From a virus, in the IMG/VR virus record IMGVR_UViG_3300037468_000493, positions 15,754 to 79,753 of that record: DNA of 64,000 nt; one strand, given 5' to 3'. The position numbers and the translations under genes are program-made. Under the pieces are notes generated by a model. It worked only from the letters and a program-made list of their open reading frames with translations. It did no database searches and was not told the DNA's origin. Shown in pieces: positions 6,054 through 47,186 of this stretch. Each line of letters begins with the position of its first letter. Position 1 is the stretch's first letter.

Positions 6054-7577
6054 TTAACCAAAGCTAGGCGGAAGAATTAGAGGGATAGACATCAGTATCT
6101 CGGTTGTCGCTGGAGCCGATGCAACACCAGCAGCGGGCAGCGCTACTTCAACGCTGAAGCTATCAATCGCGCCGCCAATGACGCAATTAAATCCCCGATA
6201 GACGTACACATTATAGATGTCATTAAACTCGCTGTTGGCCGCCGTTACCGTTACCGTCCCTGTTACCGGCTCAGATCCCAGCAGCGGCCCAGAGAAGCTG
6301 ATTACAGCCTTAAATCCATTGCCAATTAGTATTCTATCCACTAGCAACGAACCACCAACACAGGCGTTTAATGTGCCTGTGACATTCGTTTCTGTACTTA
6401 CTTGAGTGAAGGTTCGTAATAGGTGGGTCAGCGGGTATCGCCAATCTGGGTAGGCATCGTTTTGATGCACTTTGAAAAAGGGTGAAGAGTTCAAGCCTGA
6501 TGATAGTGGTATCTCAATGTTATTGCCAAGAGAACTCCCGCTCGACAATGGTGAAACCGGGACAGAGGAAATATTGCCTCCAGCATTTAACTGTATGTAT
6601 TCGTAGTCGGTAAAAATCTGAGTTTCTACGTTATAGGCGTGTTTAATGAAAAAGAAAACGTTCCTTTCGTGTCCTGAAATGTAGGCATTTGCAAATTCAG
6701 GGCGATACATTCCAGGCTCAGTTTCAGGATCTGGAATGTTCGCAGAGCCATCGTGGGCGAGTGCCCATGACTTGGATTGAGGAGGTGCGATACCCTTCAC
6801 AGCAAAGCGATTCATAAAACCGCCACCCTTCACGTAATACATTTGCCCAGCAGGAATCGCGGCAGGCACTGGATCAGCATAGGGCACTACTGCATACATC
6901 AAATGTATTCTCGCAGAACTGCGCCGAACGTAAACTCTACGGGTGCCATCGTAGCGGGCTCTGTATAAATCAGATTTCACGTAACCTTTAGCGGCCACTT
7001 CAGGCGGTATGTTCCCCTGATCCCATTCAAACTGAGATATTGTGTAGCCAGTGTACTCATAGACTTCATCAATGCTGACGACCGTTCGCCTGCTAGTTCC
7101 ACTGGATGGGATCGGGGTATCATTCCCAAAAGTTTCCCCCTGTAATGGAGCAAAAACAAGATGAGCAGTACGACCTGAAGCAATTTTCCCCTCCGTAAAA
7201 AACTGGCCAGTAAATTCTGACACTAGAGGAATCGCTGGTGTTGGGAATAGGCGAATCCCCCATGTAAATGATTGATTGTCCGACAGTGTAGGGTAAATGT
7301 CATCAAAAGGATTAATTAAAGTTGTATCAAAATAGCCCTCTTCACCAGGGGTCTTGAATGTATAGTTTATATCTGCGGCCCAAATTATTAACTTGAAACC
7401 TGGAGGGATTTGGTCAGGTGGAGCAGGATCAAAGTATCTGGCAGGGAGCGTGTAAACAAGTTTGTCGTAGCCGTTGCTGACTACCCAAAATTCGGATCGA
7501 TCTTCGTATTCTGAACGGTACAAGATAGCCGCCACCCCGGCCCCACCCCCATACCAAATAAAACTGCCTAGCCCCAT
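6054..7577 (-). CDS. Putative tail protein
   Basis: ~507 aa, lower GC than neighbours, coupled to upstream gene. Confidence 0.6.
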   Translation of the reverse strand: MGLGSFIWYGGGAGVAAILYRSEYEDRSEFWVVSNGYDKLVYTLPARYFDPAPPDQIPPGFKLIIWAADINYTFKTPGEEGYFDTTLINPFDDIYPTLSDNQSFTWGIRLFPTPAIPLVSEFTGQFFTEGKIASGRTAHLVFAPLQGETFGNDTPIPSSGTSRRTVVSIDEVYEYTGYTISQFEWDQGNIPPEVAAKGYVKSDLYRARYDGTRRVYVRRSSARIHLMYAVVPYADPVPAAIPAGQMYYVKGGGFMNRFAVKGIAPPQSKSWALAHDGSANIPDPETEPGMYRPEFANAYISGHERNVFFFIKHAYNVETQIFTDYEYIQLNAGGNISSVPVSPLSSGSSLGNNIEIPLSSGLNSSPFFKVHQNDAYPDWRYPLTHLLRTFTQVSTETNVTGTLNACVGGSLLVDRILIGNGFKAVISFSGPLLGSEPVTGTVTVTAANSEFNDIYNVYVYRGFNCVIGGAIDSFSVEVALPAAGVASAPATTEILMSIPLILPPSFG

Positions 7578-15466: not shown

Positions 15467-15753
15467 TGTCTGATGAGTTAGTCGAAAGGTTAATCATGCC
15501 AAAGCAAAAACCAATCCCTGAAGCGATAGCCGAAACCCATTATGCAAACGAAGCGATCGCCGCTAAATTCAGCGAAGTAGAAATGCTAGAGCCTGAGTTT
15601 ACCCCGGTTGAAATCTCGGTAAATTCTCAGGGGTGGAAGTATTTTGTCGGGCTTACCCCTGGCCAATGTGTCTCCGTCGAGGAGGCTACCTACCAGGGGA
15701 TCCCGATCGTCATTGATAGGGCTCAGATTGAGCCTGTGGTGCTTGTGCCTTAG
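15466..15753 (+). CDS. Hypothetical protein
   Basis: 95 aa, TAATG overlap. Confidence 0.5.
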   Translation: MSDELVERLIMPKQKPIPEAIAETHYANEAIAAKFSEVEMLEPEFTPVEISVNSQGWKYFVGLTPGQCVSVEEATYQGIPIVIDRAQIEPVVLVP

Positions 15754-15777
15754 CGCTGGGAGAGGCGTTAGGGCAGT

Positions 15778-15807
15778 AAAAACCCCTCGGGGGAGGGGCG
15801 AGGGGTT
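15778..15807 (-). terminator. Intrinsic terminator
   Basis: AACCCCTCG...CGAGGGGTT hairpin with A-tract on its left, between convergent genes. Confidence 0.6.
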
Positions 15808-15840
15808 GAGACTGGGTTAGTCACCTCCCCATGGTTTGGT

Positions 15841-15978
15841 TTAGCACAAAGCCTTGAGCATTTCTTCTTTGAGCAGGTGCTTACCCTTGCCGTGGGCATT
15901 TCGCCAGGCGATACCCCTTATGGAGCATTCGCGGCGCAACTCTGCATTGCTCATCTTGGCCCAGTCAGGTGTGGGCAC
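15841..15978 (-). CDS. 45-aa helix-extension-helix (Rho-N/SAP-like) miniprotein, paralog of the C-terminus of 45448-45867
   Basis: ELRRECSIRGIAWRNAHGKGKHLLKEEMLKALC is nearly identical to the end of the 45.4-kb ORF; not in the ORF track. Confidence 0.6.
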   Translation of the reverse strand: MPTPDWAKMSNAELRRECSIRGIAWRNAHGKGKHLLKEEMLKALC

Positions 15979-16007
15979 CTTCCCCCTCTGCTCCAACTGG
16001 CGGGGGT

Positions 16008-16220
16008 TTAGGCAAGTGCACAGGATATCGCCATGGCGCTTACTTGATTGCTTTCAATAGCCGCCTTAACCCATGCGTAGGCATTCCGCAAATCTACTTC
16101 TTCGTTAACCAAATATCGTTGCGTGTCGGGGAATACGCCAGCATCAATGACGGTTTTTAGCTGCTTAGCGTTGTAGATGCCGTGATACTTTAGTGCCTGC
16201 TTAGCTTCTGATCTAGTCAT
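16008..16220 (-). CDS. Small cassette ORF (MTRSEAKQ..., 70 aa)
   Basis: Start reassigned to the ATG after the conserved leader CATACCACCGCAAAGAGGCACCACCG. Confidence 0.65.
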   Translation of the reverse strand: MTRSEAKQALKYHGIYNAKQLKTVIDAGVFPDTQRYLVNEEVDLRNAYAWVKAAIESNQVSAMAISCALA

Positions 16221-16280
16221 CGGTGGTGCCTCTTTGCGGTGGTATGTAACCACTATAACCCCGCTTGACTGTTGCGTCAA
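16218..16280 (-). promoter_or_regulatory. sigma70-type promoter plus conserved leader/RBS
   Basis: TTGACG-N17-TATAGT; leader identical to that at 45128-45156. Confidence 0.75.
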
Positions 16281-16295
16281 TAGGCAAAGTGAAAA

Positions 16296-16312
16296 GTGAA
16301 ATTAGTTTTCAC
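16296..16312. promoter_or_regulatory. Palindromic operator-like site GTGAAA-N5-TTTCAC
   Basis: Identical 17-mer at 16888-16904; both lie upstream of -35 boxes. Confidence 0.6.
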
Positions 16313-16559
16313 CTTTCCCTTCCCTCTTGCGATCCCTGGCCTCATTGCCGGTTTTGCCCGTGCGCTTGCGACTGGCCCTAGATCGATCGGTGCTACTGGT
16401 GCCCCCATCGGTGCCGTGCCTGTAGCCGCCATGGGTAGCCCCTGACTTGGCTACCTGCTTGCGGCATTGGGGACACCGCCAGCGATCGCCGTTAGAGTGC
16501 ATCGGTGCATGTCCACAATGGGGACAGGTTGGTGCGGTGGGGTTGGGTTTGTGTGTCAT
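16302..16559 (-). CDS. Small zinc-ribbon protein with basic C-terminus
   Basis: CPHC...WRCPQC, then STDRSRASRKR; paralog at 45960-46169. Confidence 0.7.
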   Translation of the reverse strand: MTHKPNPTAPTCPHCGHAPMHSNGDRWRCPQCRKQVAKSGATHGGYRHGTDGGTSSTDRSRASRKRTGKTGNEARDRKREGKGEN

Positions 16560-16581
16560 GGTTGAGTTTCCTATGAAAACA

Positions 16582-16845
16582 CCTCCGGCGGAAGGCTACG
16601 CAGAGCAGCAACCCCAGGGAATCGGACTAGGCGTTCACCACATTGACCGCCCCTGCCGTTTGTAGCCGATAGTGGGAATCCCCTCTAGGGGGCACCGTCG
16701 CTAGGGCCATTGTTCACTCCCCGACAGGATCTTTAAGCGGTGTAGCTGGTTTCAGCGTTGGCCGATGTAGGATCCATGCTCTGCGTATCACCCCCCGCCG
16801 GAAGCTTTGACTACGGGTGTGCATCCCGGTGGGCTTTTAGCCGAT
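16582..16845 (-). ncRNA. Candidate structured ncRNA or long structured 5' leader
   Basis: TTGACG-N17-TAATAT promoter at 16851-16879; 16777-16804 pairs with 16582-16607, with G-U pairs that work only on the minus strand. Confidence 0.6.
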
Positions 16846-16900
16846 ACCTAATATTAACCCCTTTTGAGTGTTGCGTCAATAGGCAAAGTGAAATTAGTTT

Positions 16901-17254
16901 TCACAGTGTGACTTGATCCCCCATCACCAGTAGATAAAGCTGCTGAAAACTGAGCCCCAATGCAGCCCGCCGCGATTCAAACCGTCGGCGGGTTTCTGCT
17001 ATGGTCAGCCCGGTCTTTTCAGCTAATGGCGCAAAGGTACTCCCGTCAAATTCTTCGGCCCACAGGCAGAACAGTTGAGCCGGTGGAATTTGCCAGTCAT
17101 GGGCCAGGGCGATTAGATCGTCGACGGCCCACGCGACTAGCCCCGATTCTCGCTTTGAATATTGGTGTAGGGTCAGGGCTGTTTGTGCTCGGTACGCGGC
17201 ATCGACCGTTGGGTAGCCCAGAGATCGCCGGACTTCCCTAAACGCTGCCACCAT
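16901..17254 (-). CDS. XRE-like HTH regulator
   Basis: FREVRRSLGY...QYSKRESG...DDLIALA pattern; divergent from tail operon. Confidence 0.55.
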   Translation of the reverse strand: MVAAFREVRRSLGYPTVDAAYRAQTALTLHQYSKRESGLVAWAVDDLIALAHDWQIPPAQLFCLWAEEFDGSTFAPLAEKTGLTIAETRRRFESRRAALGLSFQQLYLLVMGDQVTL

Positions 17255-35744: not shown

Positions 35745-35806
35745 GTAAGTGCCCTCCCAGGCGGTGGTATGTATCCACTATAACCCACACCTTTTGTGAC
35801 TGTCAA
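35742..35806 (-). promoter_or_regulatory. sigma70-type cassette promoter and leader
   Basis: TTGACAGTCACAAAAGGTGTGGGTTATAGT...CATACCACCGC. Confidence 0.75.
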
Positions 35807-40103: not shown

Positions 40104-40940
40104 TTACCTAATCGTCAGCATATACCTTGCGCTAGTCAGTCCGGGTGGGGTTACGCCCTGCTTTGCGTTAGTTTTGTCCCGATCTGTAGCCCCTGCCCTG
40201 AGATCATATTTGTTGTCGGACGATCCACTAACTAACCACTTATTGAATTGAGCGGGTGTAACCCTATCCCCTATCGCAGACCTTAGTTCATGGATGGGGA
40301 TGCTATCGCCCGGTTTTTTGCCAGCAAGTCGGCTAGAAATGGCCCGATTAAATCCTGCCTGAGAATTAATAACCTCCCCGCTTTTAGTGCCTCTCCGAGC
40401 CTCTACAGCAGATTGCACCCTATTAGTCCCAGCGGAAGCTAAAGGCTTGATGCTGCTCCTCGTAAGGCCGCCCATATTAAAATCGGCTCTGCTATTAGCG
40501 TAGGAAAGATTTTTTTCAGATCCGAATTGAACTTTGTCATTTTGCATCGCTTGCCGTAACTGGCTGCTAAATTTAGCATCTGTAAGCCCAGGGTGCTCAG
40601 ATTGCATCCTGGCTTTCAAGTCGGCGATGGTTATAGGGGTGGTGCTTGCGACTCCCTGAGGAACCTGCTCTAGGCGTATTTGTTCAATATGCTGGAGCGC
40701 TAAATCTTCAAAATCTGCCTGGCTTTTAATATCGCCCAATGGGGATGCAGACGGATTCGCTTTCTCGGCCCCATCCATCACACCGCCACCACCGCCACCG
40801 CCGCCACCGCCGCCCTTCTGGCTAGCATGGTTCCCTGCCTTTACAGCGGCCCCGCCGTTGCCTGTCTGTCGATGGCCTATAAGTATGGCAATATCGCCGT
40901 TACCATCTTGGCAATGGTTGGTGCGGGTTGCGTTAGTCAT
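40104..40940 (-). CDS. Hypothetical protein with poly-Gly linker and two similar winged-helix-like segments
   Basis: SQADF...ITIADLK...AKF and SQAGF...IPIHELR...AQF; cassette promoter upstream. Confidence 0.6.
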   Translation of the reverse strand: MTNATRTNHCQDGNGDIAILIGHRQTGNGGAAVKAGNHASQKGGGGGGGGGGGVMDGAEKANPSASPLGDIKSQADFEDLALQHIEQIRLEQVPQGVASTTPITIADLKARMQSEHPGLTDAKFSSQLRQAMQNDKVQFGSEKNLSYANSRADFNMGGLTRSSIKPLASAGTNRVQSAVEARRGTKSGEVINSQAGFNRAISSRLAGKKPGDSIPIHELRSAIGDRVTPAQFNKWLVSGSSDNKYDLRAGATDRDKTNAKQGVTPPGLTSARYMLTIR

Positions 40941-41002
40941 CGGTCGGTTCCTCTCTTGCGGTGTATGTACCTACTATAACCCACACCTTTTGCAACTGTC
41001 AA
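40938..41002 (-). promoter_or_regulatory. sigma70-type cassette promoter and leader
   Basis: TTGACAGTTGCAAAAGGTGTGGGTTATAGT...CATACACCGCAAGAGAGG. Confidence 0.75.
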
Positions 41003-45092: not shown

Positions 45093-45156
45093 TTGACAGT
45101 CACAAAAGGTGTGGGTTACAGTGGATGCATACCACCGCAAAGAGGCACCACCGATG
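45093..45156 (+). promoter_or_regulatory. sigma70-type cassette promoter and leader
   Basis: TTGACAGTCACAAAAGGTGTGGGTTACAGT...CATACCACCGCAAAGAGGCACCACCG-ATG. Confidence 0.75.
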
Positions 45157-45351
45157 ACTACCGCAATGCGCCAAACCATTTCTAGCAACAACAGCGCCAC
45201 CATAACCGCCGCTGCATCGACCGAAAAATTCAGCATTCGCCTAGAAGACAAGCTAGTAGGCGAGACTCACACCGTCACTATTTTTGACGCAGCAGAAGCC
45301 CGACGCCTAGCCGCCGCTCTATTGCTATGGGCCGACAACGCTGACGCCTAG
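45154..45351 (+). CDS. Small cassette ORF (MTTAMRQ...)
   Basis: Starts at the conserved leader; EARRLAAALL motif. Confidence 0.65.
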   Translation: MTTAMRQTISSNNSATITAAASTEKFSIRLEDKLVGETHTVTIFDAAEARRLAAALLLWADNADA

Positions 45352-45357
45352 CATCAC

Positions 45358-45396
45358 GCCAGTTGGAGTAAAGGGGGTTCGATTCCCCCTCCTGGC
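45358..45396 (+). other. tRNA-like minihelix (T-arm plus short stem)
   Basis: GGGGG-TTCGATT-CCCCC enclosed by GCCAG/CTGGC; no D or anticodon arm. Confidence 0.5.
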
Positions 45397-45447
45397 CTGA
45401 GCCCCACCCACTACACGGGGCCATTCACCACATTGAGGATTCACACC

Positions 45448-45867
45448 ATGACCGCATTCGAGATTTTCATGTACGCCGCTGCAATCCTGACCGTGCTCTG
45501 GCTCCGTGCCGAGCCCCAGGCCCCCACCCCGATCGCCGTCGCGCCAGCGGTGCAACCAGTTGATGACCTTCCCGCCCTCCCGGTGCTGCTAGCCCAGTCC
45601 GAGAAGCTGACCGCGCCGCCGGTGGTGACTTCGCGCACGGTAGCCGCCGATATGGTTGAACCGGTAGCGATCGCCCGAATTGAGGATGCCTGGATTGCTG
45701 AGCTAGAAGTAGAGCCACCCTCGCCCACGGCGGCAGCAGATTATTTGGAAACCTGGAGCGCCCAGGAGCTACGCCGCGAATGCAGCCGCCGGGGTATTGC
45801 CTGGCGTAATGCCCACGGCAAGGGTAAGCACCTGCTCAAAGAAGAAATGCTCAAGGCTTTGTGCTAG
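45448..45867 (+). CDS. Membrane-anchored protein with C-terminal HeH (Rho-N/SAP-like) motif
   Basis: N-terminal hydrophobic helix, Pro/Ala linker, WSAQELRRECSRRGI...KEEMLKAL. Confidence 0.65.
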   Translation: MTAFEIFMYAAAILTVLWLRAEPQAPTPIAVAPAVQPVDDLPALPVLLAQSEKLTAPPVVTSRTVAADMVEPVAIARIEDAWIAELEVEPPSPTAAADYLETWSAQELRRECSRRGIAWRNAHGKGKHLLKEEMLKALC

Positions 45868-45959
45868 GCATGAACTGGGGAGGTGACTAACCCAGGCACA
45901 ACTACACCCCGCACCTCCCCCGATGGGCACCCACCACCACCCCTACCAGGACGCCACCC

Positions 45960-46169
45960 ATGACTACCTGCCCCCACTGCCACTACAGCCCCTGCCACCG
46001 CCACGACAAGACCAGGGCAGGCACTCAGCGGTGGATGTGCCCCCAATGCCTCAAGGCCCACAGCGAGAGCGGCCTAAAGGGGCGGCCTAGCATTGGCGAT
46101 CGCCCCATGACCGACGCTGAGCGAATGCGGCGGAGCAGGAAGAAAAAGAGAAGCACGGGACTACCGTAG
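45960..46169 (+). CDS. Small zinc-ribbon protein with basic helix
   Basis: CPHC...GTQRWMCPQC; GRPSIGDRPMTDAERMRRSR. Confidence 0.7.
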   Translation: MTTCPHCHYSPCHRHDKTRAGTQRWMCPQCLKAHSESGLKGRPSIGDRPMTDAERMRRSRKKKRSTGLP

Positions 46170-47186
46170 CGACTCCAGCACCCGCAGCGACTCCAGCACC
46201 CGCTGCATCATCAGGCATGGGATACCGTTGCCGATGATCTTGGTGGTTGCCCCCTGATACCAATCGGGCATGGTTTGGATGCGGCCAAAGGCTTGGGTAT
46301 TGAATGCCACTACCCTGCCGCCCACCTGCGCCCGTATGCTGCGCTTAGCCTGAGTCGCTGAAACAGTAAACATGGGTTCGGCATCGGCTCGGATGGTCAA
46401 ACCCCGCTTGCCCTTTTCGTCCGGAGCGCCGTTGTACTGATCATCAATGACGAAGGCTTTAATCAAATTGCCGCCCTGATTAGTCGTCAGGGTGAACGAT
46501 GGTCTGTCCCATGGCACAACCGGCATGGTTCGTTGGTCGGTGGGGTGAACCATGAAGGACTTGTTTAGCTGTGCGGGCAGCCGCTCCAACTGCCATAGTG
46601 CAAACTGGCTATCCGGCAACCCAGGGATCAAATCCTCAATGGCCTCATACCACCCCCGCCACTTCACCGGCTGAGGTAATGGCCCAACGAACCCGCCTTT
46701 GACCGCCCGCAGGATTAACCGGCGGCGGGTCTGGGGTACTCCAAAATCTGCTGAATTGAGCACATCCACATTGACCCAATACCCAGCCCCCCAGAGATGA
46801 TCCACAATGCGCTGGAACCCTGGGGCCTTGCGGTAGCCCTCCACGTTCTCCAGGGTGACGGTGCTGGGCTTTAGCACCCGTAGCGCCTCAATACAGGCAC
46901 TGGCTAACCCATCGTTGTCATTGCCCACCTTGCCGCGGGTCTTGGCCACGCTGAAATCTTGGCAGGGCGGCGACATGTGCAAATGGTCGGGGCTCTCCAC
47001 ACTGGCCCAGTCAAACCCGATCACCGAGGCTGTATGTACCGTGTCCCGGTGGGGGAGGTTGGCATTTGCAACGGAAGCAATATCCGGCTCTAGCTCAACA
47101 CCCCAAAGCAACTCATACCCCGACTGCATGGCCCCGATGTCGGCCAGCCCCCCGCCGGTGAATAACGAAGCGAATGTTTTTGGCAT
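46161..47186 (-). CDS. DNA cytosine-C5 methyltransferase
   Basis: SLFTGGG, SPPCQDFS, ENV, QTRRR, IGNG motifs. Confidence 0.92.
   Translation of the reverse strand: MPKTFASLFTGGGLADIGAMQSGYELLWGVELEPDIASVANANLPHRDTVHTASVIGFDWASVESPDHLHMSPPCQDFSVAKTRGKVGNDNDGLASACIEALRVLKPSTVTLENVEGYRKAPGFQRIVDHLWGAGYWVNVDVLNSADFGVPQTRRRLILRAVKGGFVGPLPQPVKWRGWYEAIEDLIPGLPDSQFALWQLERLPAQLNKSFMVHPTDQRTMPVVPWDRPSFTLTTNQGGNLIKAFVIDDQYNGAPDEKGKRGLTIRADAEPMFTVSATQAKRSIRAQVGGRVVAFNTQAFGRIQTMPDWYQGATTKIIGNGIPCLMMQRVLESLRVLESLR

Follow-up and report, generated by a model that had tools for sequence, protein, structure and literature searches.

A conserved, strand-specific RNA structure and its promoter as a probably autonomous unit in a variable accessory island of freshwater cyanosiphoviruses

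The DNA analyzed here, hereafter called the window, is a stretch of 64,000 nucleotides from a 79.7-kb IMG/VR virus record that carries direct terminal repeats. The octamer HIP1 (GCGATCGC), a marker of cyanobacteria, occurs 39 times in the whole genome compared to an expectation of ∼1.7, and this excess in a phage genome indicates a cyanobacterial host. Among isolated phages, relatives of the portal protein were found only in cyanosiphoviruses such as S-CBS2 and PSS2, at ∼25% identity. Sequencing runs that contain parts of the RNA locus described below are mostly freshwater metagenomes. Neither a gene for a tyrosine recombinase or integrase (Pfam Phage_integrase family) nor a match to the reverse transcriptase model PF00078 was detected in the 79.7-kb record.

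The RNA locus sits in the tail-gene region, within an accessory island (Table 1). In the relative L003, which shares 91–93% nucleotide identity with the window, the whole island is missing and the equivalent of position 16905 is joined directly to that of 15756. The island comprises a predicted promoter (P1) with the structured RNA, a zinc-ribbon gene, a second promoter (P2) with a small ORF of ∼70 codons (90 amino acids when counted from the first listed start codon), an ORF for a HeH/SAP-like protein of 51 amino acids, and a terminator at 15799–15782. Base composition does not set the island apart, with a GC content of 0.548 versus 0.543 for the genome (sd 0.035 in windows of equal size). 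The Pfam matches of the zinc-ribbon protein are sub-threshold and generic, to zinc ribbons only.

Table 1. Positions of the RNA element, its parts and adjoining features in the window.
Feature	Positions	Strand	Description
Accessory island	15757–16904	minus	1148 bp; absent from L003
Promoter P1	16851–16879	minus	TTGACG (−35), 17-nt spacer, TAATAT (−10); predicted by consensus scan
Structured RNA	16848–16575	minus	∼265 nt; from folding and comparison with L011
5′ domain of RNA	16805–16848	minus	first UAUCGGCUA copy, small hairpin 16828–16814, single-stranded AGUCAAAG
Closing stem, 5′ arm	16777–16804	minus	CUUCCGGCGGGGGGU-GA-UACGCAGAGCA; identical in L011
RNA core	16608–16776	minus	GAUCCUA/UGGGGUU and CCUGUCG/CGGCAGG helices, hairpin CCCC-CUAGA-GGGG, second UAUCGGCUA copy
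27-codon ORF in RNA	16627–16710	minus	GGGGAG upstream; open in L011 too
Closing stem, 3′ arm	16582–16607	minus	UGCUCUGCGUA-GCCUUCCGCCGGAGG; L011 homology stops within last 4–5 nt
U-rich tail	16575–16581	minus	UGUUUUC after closing stem; terminator-like together with the stem
Zinc-ribbon gene	16302–16559	minus	85 aa, basic tail; directly downstream of RNA in window genome

Judging from the spacing to the −10 box, transcription of the RNA is predicted to start near 16848–16845. The minus strand of 16848–16575 folds with a free energy of −116 kcal/mol (z = −2.91), and none of 200 shuffled sequences folds as well; for the plus strand the corresponding values are −106.9, z = −1.63, and 11 of 200. 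The closing stem consists of 26 base pairs between 16804–16777 and 16607–16582, interrupted by a two-nucleotide GA bulge, and its only non-Watson-Crick positions are four G-U pairs that become A-C mismatches on the plus strand. The first-pass annotation had listed the major stems, had claimed that several of their G-U pairs are valid only on the minus strand, and had noted TATCGGCTA twice in the element. All of these stems are present on the minus strand at the positions given for them, the strand dependence of the G-U pairs is borne out by the four in the closing stem, and our count likewise gives two copies of TATCGGCTA in the element (three in the window in total, with 0.32 expected). Because the minimum free energy folds of the window RNA and of its homologue in L011 (see below) differ, the topology of the interior is uncertain, and in these models the region from ∼16765 to 16620 could be either rod-like or multi-branched. 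Comparison supports only three parts of the fold, namely the 5′ hairpin, the rod that closes the core, and the helix CCUGUCG/CGGCAGG of 7 bp.

Covariance model searches with Rfam 15 covered 4227 models, including those for 6S RNA, tmRNA, ribozymes, riboswitches, GOLLD and ROOL RNAs, cyanobacterial Yfr RNAs, and Cyano motifs. There were no matches in the whole window at gathering thresholds, and a cmscan of 16200–17200 with E values up to 10 returned only a chance hit to snoZ185 on the opposite strand, at 15 bits versus a threshold of 50. Thus, the family that could not be recognized in the first-pass annotation also matches none in Rfam, the known ribozyme families included. ARAGORN predicts no tRNA or tmRNA gene in the window, and a tRNA or tmRNA identity was rejected for want of a tRNA-like domain. 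A retron or DGR is excluded by the lack of a reverse transcriptase in the 79.7-kb record. Complementarity of the RNA to the whole phage genome amounts to chance-level 13-mers, which speaks against a base-pairing regulator of phage genes.

Searches for homologues outside Rfam were similarly sparse in their yield. The RNA has no match in phage and plasmid collections (blastn, distant mode), and pattern scans of IMG/VR reveal no homologue, whether based on the stem pair, on two segments of the core, or on the promoter family. A 20-mer search of GTDB genomes gives two chance matches in Myxococcales MAGs that lack further similarity. No paralogue or distant copy is detected by covariance model R1 in the genome itself, in the L002 and L003 records, or among 22 loci. 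Relatives retrieved by way of the adjacent tail gene are only the L003 record and one distant contig, which has no copy of the RNA. So far, this RNA is seen in only a few freshwater cyanophages that are close relatives of one another. It fits none of the catalogued families and is a credible new orphan RNA family.

A metagenome scan identified one JGI contig, L011, that carries the RNA at 93% identity in a phage that is ∼92% identical to the window over the tail genes. The homology between the two loci has its upstream limit 4 nt ahead of the −35 box and its downstream limit in the final bases of the closing stem's 3′ arm, and these limits mark the promoter plus the RNA as the conserved unit. 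P1 is conserved in L011 apart from one change in its spacer. At the other end, the scan for terminators finds a terminator-like site at 16596–16581 with the tail GTTTTCATAG. The counterpart in L011 of the window sequence GGAGG-UGUUUUC is UUGCUUUUUG, and the L011 fold lengthens the rod by pairing AAAGC with GCUUU, such that the arrangement of a stem followed by U residues is retained by other means. Both the predicted promoter and the stem with its U-run (16607–16575) are conserved in L011. The U-run of the window has only four U residues, and some read-through is likely to be possible.

The L011 homologue also folds into a stable structure (−118.2, z = −2.75). Nineteen substitutions distinguish it from the window in 263 homologous columns, and 10 of these lie in the 78 base pairs of the RNAalifold consensus. 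All 10 keep a standard pair and none is broken. These pair-preserving changes comprise two double-sided exchanges (C-G to G-C at the base of the 5′ hairpin and C-G to U-A in the 7-bp helix) and six single-sided ones. The 7-bp helix has accumulated four substitutions with every pair kept, and the six changes of the wobble type are tolerated on the minus strand only. When pairing partners are slid as a control, 38–48% of cells are paired versus the 100% observed. Shuffling of the columns as a further control does not reach significance (122 of 500), and with just two full-length sequences that are 93% identical, the power to detect covariation is low.

Mutants of the window RNA that received the substitution spectrum of L011 at random positions have a mean stability of −100.3±5.5 kcal/mol versus −110.6 for L011, and only 2.8% of them reach the stability of L011. 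The plus strand shows the opposite trend, with L011 folding less stably than the window. Moreover, 44 nt of the inner duplex and an apical 45-nt stretch (16723–16679) are invariant against a background divergence of ∼7%. Identical changes at three positions of the 5′ hairpin (16814, 16828, and 16829) recur in metagenome contigs from X3, X6, and X9, along with a G-U to A-U change at 16612. X3 has one further G-C to G-U change, as well as one change that breaks a peripheral 2-bp helix. Together with the folding results and the absence of an Rfam match, the L011 comparison supports the first-pass proposal of a structured RNA, probably non-coding and specific to one strand, that lies downstream of a promoter.

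The island varies considerably in its organization. X6 includes an island-less joint of 15753 to 16914, a joint between promoter copies (16280 to 16891) that removes the RNA and the zinc-ribbon gene, and a separate contig that carries the RNA. In X3 the RNA is kept, 15808–16301 is absent, and the zinc-ribbon gene is set apart from the RNA by ∼300 nt of other sequence. Contig joints place a similar interval of ∼300 nt between the two in X9, and X2 has the junction of the window type. In L011, the sequence upstream of the RNA unit is the terminator of another promoter-led cassette with a 74-aa ORF, and on the downstream side ∼300 nt with a convergent ORF of 107 codons, which has a promoter-like site of its own, precede the zinc-ribbon gene. 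Thus, the RNA cassette has been retained in no fewer than three layouts of the island (window/X2, L011/X9, and X3). In the provirus L002, three cassettes of the same promoter family stand in tandem, with a zinc-ribbon gene that is 63% identical to that of the window and with no homologue of the RNA.

P1 is a member of a repeated promoter family (TTGACGYAACASTCA) with a second copy at 16280–16252. A promoter of this family (TATTGACGYAACASTCA ... TAnnnT) heads every island cassette, with at most ∼57 nt shared in the window. Its sites are 16252–16312 and 16851–16904 in the window; 2841, 3279, and 3750 in L002; and 6485 and 6878 in L011. The repeats coincide with recombination joints in metagenome contigs, as in the X6 joint of 16280 to 16891, and the repeated promoter seems to double as a site for cassette shuffling by recombination.

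Several further features of the surrounding sequence were observed. The 107-codon ORF of L011 (7127–7450, minus strand) overlaps the 3′ arm of the RNA by ∼50 nt, has its promoter-like site at 7481–7454, and is absent from the window; it received no Pfam or PHROG-type assignment. The zinc-ribbon gene of L002 is preceded by a leader of ∼95–120 nt (2880–2975) with a 5′ hairpin and a strong terminator-like hairpin (CCCCGGC...GCCGGGG-UUUUCUGUUU), which suggests that a layout of promoter, short structured RNA, terminator, and zinc-ribbon gene recurs with an unrelated RNA sequence. A paralogous module in the window at 45100–46170 (plus strand) corresponds to 15783–16261 (minus strand) and has the same leader, an unrelated small ORF, and no RNA cassette. 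Its HeH/SAP-like C-terminal segment is 84% identical to that of the island (15783–15942 versus 45766–45927), and it includes a second zinc-ribbon gene (45960–46169, 69 aa). The leader, of ∼48 nt and ending in a start codon (…ACCACCGCAAAGAGGCACCACCG-ATGAC), is found at four places with 88–96% identity (16214–16261, 45113–45160, 40934–40982, and 35761–35786). From its sequence, it looks like a 5′ UTR and ribosome-binding site shared by several small genes.

The structure might act in cis, as a leader or attenuator in the 5′ UTR of the zinc-ribbon mRNA whose stem and U-run control read-through. In the window and in the X2 contig (16523–16685), the zinc-ribbon ATG lies 16 nt past the U-run with no other predicted promoter for the gene, and the zinc-ribbon gene of L002 stands behind the same promoter type with a leader of ∼120 nt and a terminator-like hairpin. 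However, a direct linkage of RNA and gene is not conserved in L011, X3, X9, or L002. The convergent ORF of L011 and the ∼300 nt of other sequence in X3 and X9 intervene, yet the RNA is intact, and the leader of L002 has no detectable homology to the RNA, the alignment of the two scoring below the shuffle mean. Moreover, no riboswitch or leader family was matched. The presence of a convergent gene in L011 argues that the RNA is autonomous rather than a dedicated leader of the zinc-ribbon gene, and we regard the leader reading as unlikely. Because of the spacing in L011, X3, and X9, because the RNA itself terminates in a stem with a U-run, and because L002 has the gene without the RNA, the first-pass idea of co-transcription with the zinc-ribbon gene, like a functional pairing with its protein, finds no support as a general feature. 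Since no other promoter is seen for the gene in the window, read-through and co-transcription are nevertheless likely in this particular genome, and read-through from P1 into the zinc-ribbon gene would be limited to the window-type arrangement. A small protein, made from the 27-codon ORF or from a 65-codon frame through a TGA, would instead make the transcript an mRNA or a dual-function RNA. The small ORF is open in both homologues with a motif resembling a Shine-Dalgarno sequence 6 nt upstream, neighboring cassettes with the same promoter type encode proteins of ∼50–85 aa, and two of the three X3 variants in the ORF are synonymous. However, such motifs precede 7% of all ATGs in the genome, so that GGGGAG is weak evidence, and in the consensus fold both the motif and the AUG are buried in a hairpin. 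A 36-codon ORF shares one frame with the 27-codon ORF, and the intervening TGA is conserved in L011. Substitutions over the 65-codon frame (∼8 non-synonymous versus 3 synonymous, some of them radical, with R to P and P to S/L among them) are close to neutral. Within the 27-codon ORF, L011 differs by S to T, G to R, and V to G, plus one fully synonymous change, and the first 36 nt are invariant with synonymous sites included. Several changes are also matched by pair-restoring changes outside the ORF. The substitution pattern and the motif frequency led us to judge a coding role for the 36-, 27-, and 65-codon frames quite unlikely. The first-pass statement that there is no convincing ORF stands with respect to coding-type conservation, but should be read with the 36- and 27-codon frames in mind.

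That same 65-codon frame, with its one in-frame stop and neutral-looking substitutions, and the dispensability of the island would fit a decayed remnant of a protein cassette that folds fortuitously and is non-functional DNA. Against this, the substitutions in paired positions are all pair-preserving, the stability of L011 exceeds that of 97% of random mutants, neither the duplex of 44 nt nor the apical stretch of 45 nt has changed despite ∼7% divergence, and the unit is kept in three island layouts. We therefore find a functionless remnant very improbable. As an observation on its origin, the 65-codon frame occupies 16627–16824 on the minus strand with a single TGA stop that is conserved in L011, and the RNA may have evolved out of an earlier small-protein cassette that left this frame as a trace. 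Least probable of all, in our estimate, is an element that acts at the DNA level, be it a MITE, a switch that inverts, or a site of recombination or replication. The 26-bp inverted repeats around ∼170 bp and the recombinogenic nature of the island would be compatible with such an element. However, it is present in a single copy in the genome, no target-site duplication is seen at its flanks, all four arm mismatches are G-U pairs on one strand, no real copies were found in phage and plasmid collections, IMG/VR, or the GTDB scan, and the genome has no gene of the Pfam Phage_integrase family. A MITE or repeated palindrome was rejected on the grounds of copy number and flanks, and since a complete close relative is devoid of the element, it is not an origin or packaging site.

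We consider it probable that the element constitutes an autonomous accessory gene whose product is a structured, trans-acting non-coding RNA of ∼265 nt. Host RNA polymerase would initiate at the predicted sigma-70-type promoter (TTGACG-17-TAATAT), and the transcript is expected from folding and comparison to adopt a 5′ hairpin domain and a core closed by a rod of 26–29 bp. Transcription would then mostly end at the U-run past the rod. Relatives and contig joints show that the promoter-RNA unit is one cassette in a small island of promoter-led cassettes, and that this island is gained, lost, and rearranged, seemingly through recombination at the common promoter repeats. The RNA cassette is dispensable to the phage, because close relatives lack it. 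Action in trans might involve the long duplex, the two copies of UAUCGGCUA, and the apical 45 nt that do not vary. Most likely, the RNA would bind or titrate a host or phage protein, or else undergo duplex cleavage, presumably of the RNase III type, that would release a stable core.

It is also conceivable, but on balance doubtful, that this cassette is an RNA-only accessory “moron”, that is, a trans-acting RNA that serves in phage-host or phage-phage conflict, is gained and lost by promoter-to-promoter recombination, and represents a new functional class. Such an RNA may, for example, be a decoy or sponge for a host defense or RNA-binding protein, or a processed effector that bears a duplex.

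Stand-alone small RNAs of phages and prophages include lambda OOP, P4 CI, P1/P7 c4, DicF, IsrK, and AgvB. These are short non-coding phage units in which a host-type promoter is combined with a 3′ end of the intrinsic type, features that are predicted for the window RNA as well. However, the window RNA far exceeds typical base-pairing small RNAs in length and in degree of structure. It also differs from the RNAs named above in that it is not antisense to a conserved neighbor, has no phage target that we could find, and shows no sequence or model similarity to them in Rfam scans. With GOLLD, ROOL, and other large orphan RNAs of phages and prophages in Rfam it has in common a highly structured nature, a phage-borne location, and comparative support, but at ∼265 nt versus >500 nt it is far smaller, and cmscan gives no match to them at E values up to 10. 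A long terminal duplex that encloses a structured interior is also seen in 6S RNA and in retron msr-msd RNAs; the window RNA, however, does not match 6S models, and the genome that carries it has no reverse transcriptase.

Where near-identical phages differ in an accessory island, the genes in it usually serve conflict with the host or with other phages. To our knowledge, almost all of the cargo described so far for such islands is protein, whereas here one slot of an accessory island is filled by an RNA. Because the promoter-to-terminator unit is preserved in several layouts, we argue that the RNA itself is the selected product. The comparisons reveal a conserved, strand-specific RNA structure that, from promoter to stem, probably stands as a unit of its own within the polymorphic island of this lineage of freshwater cyanosiphoviruses. 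If a function were identified, the natural variants with and without the cassette would make it a compact and well-delimited test case.

A further parallel is with phage morons, which are independent promoter-gene-terminator units between conserved genes, as exemplified by HK97 gene 15 in the tail operon (PMC3594210). The RNA island resembles them as extra DNA between genes that abut in the close relative L003 and in the X6 joint, and the RNA cassette is likewise located in the tail-gene region with its own predicted promoter-like and terminator-like signals. In contrast to morons, whose cargo is protein, the cargo here is apparently RNA; in addition, the base composition of the island is not deviant, and no integrase was found in this genome that would confirm a temperate moron. 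With the exception of deviant composition, the RNA cassette has the position and the predicted signals that characterize a moron, and if a function is found for it, an RNA effector would be added to the accessory repertoire of cyanophages.
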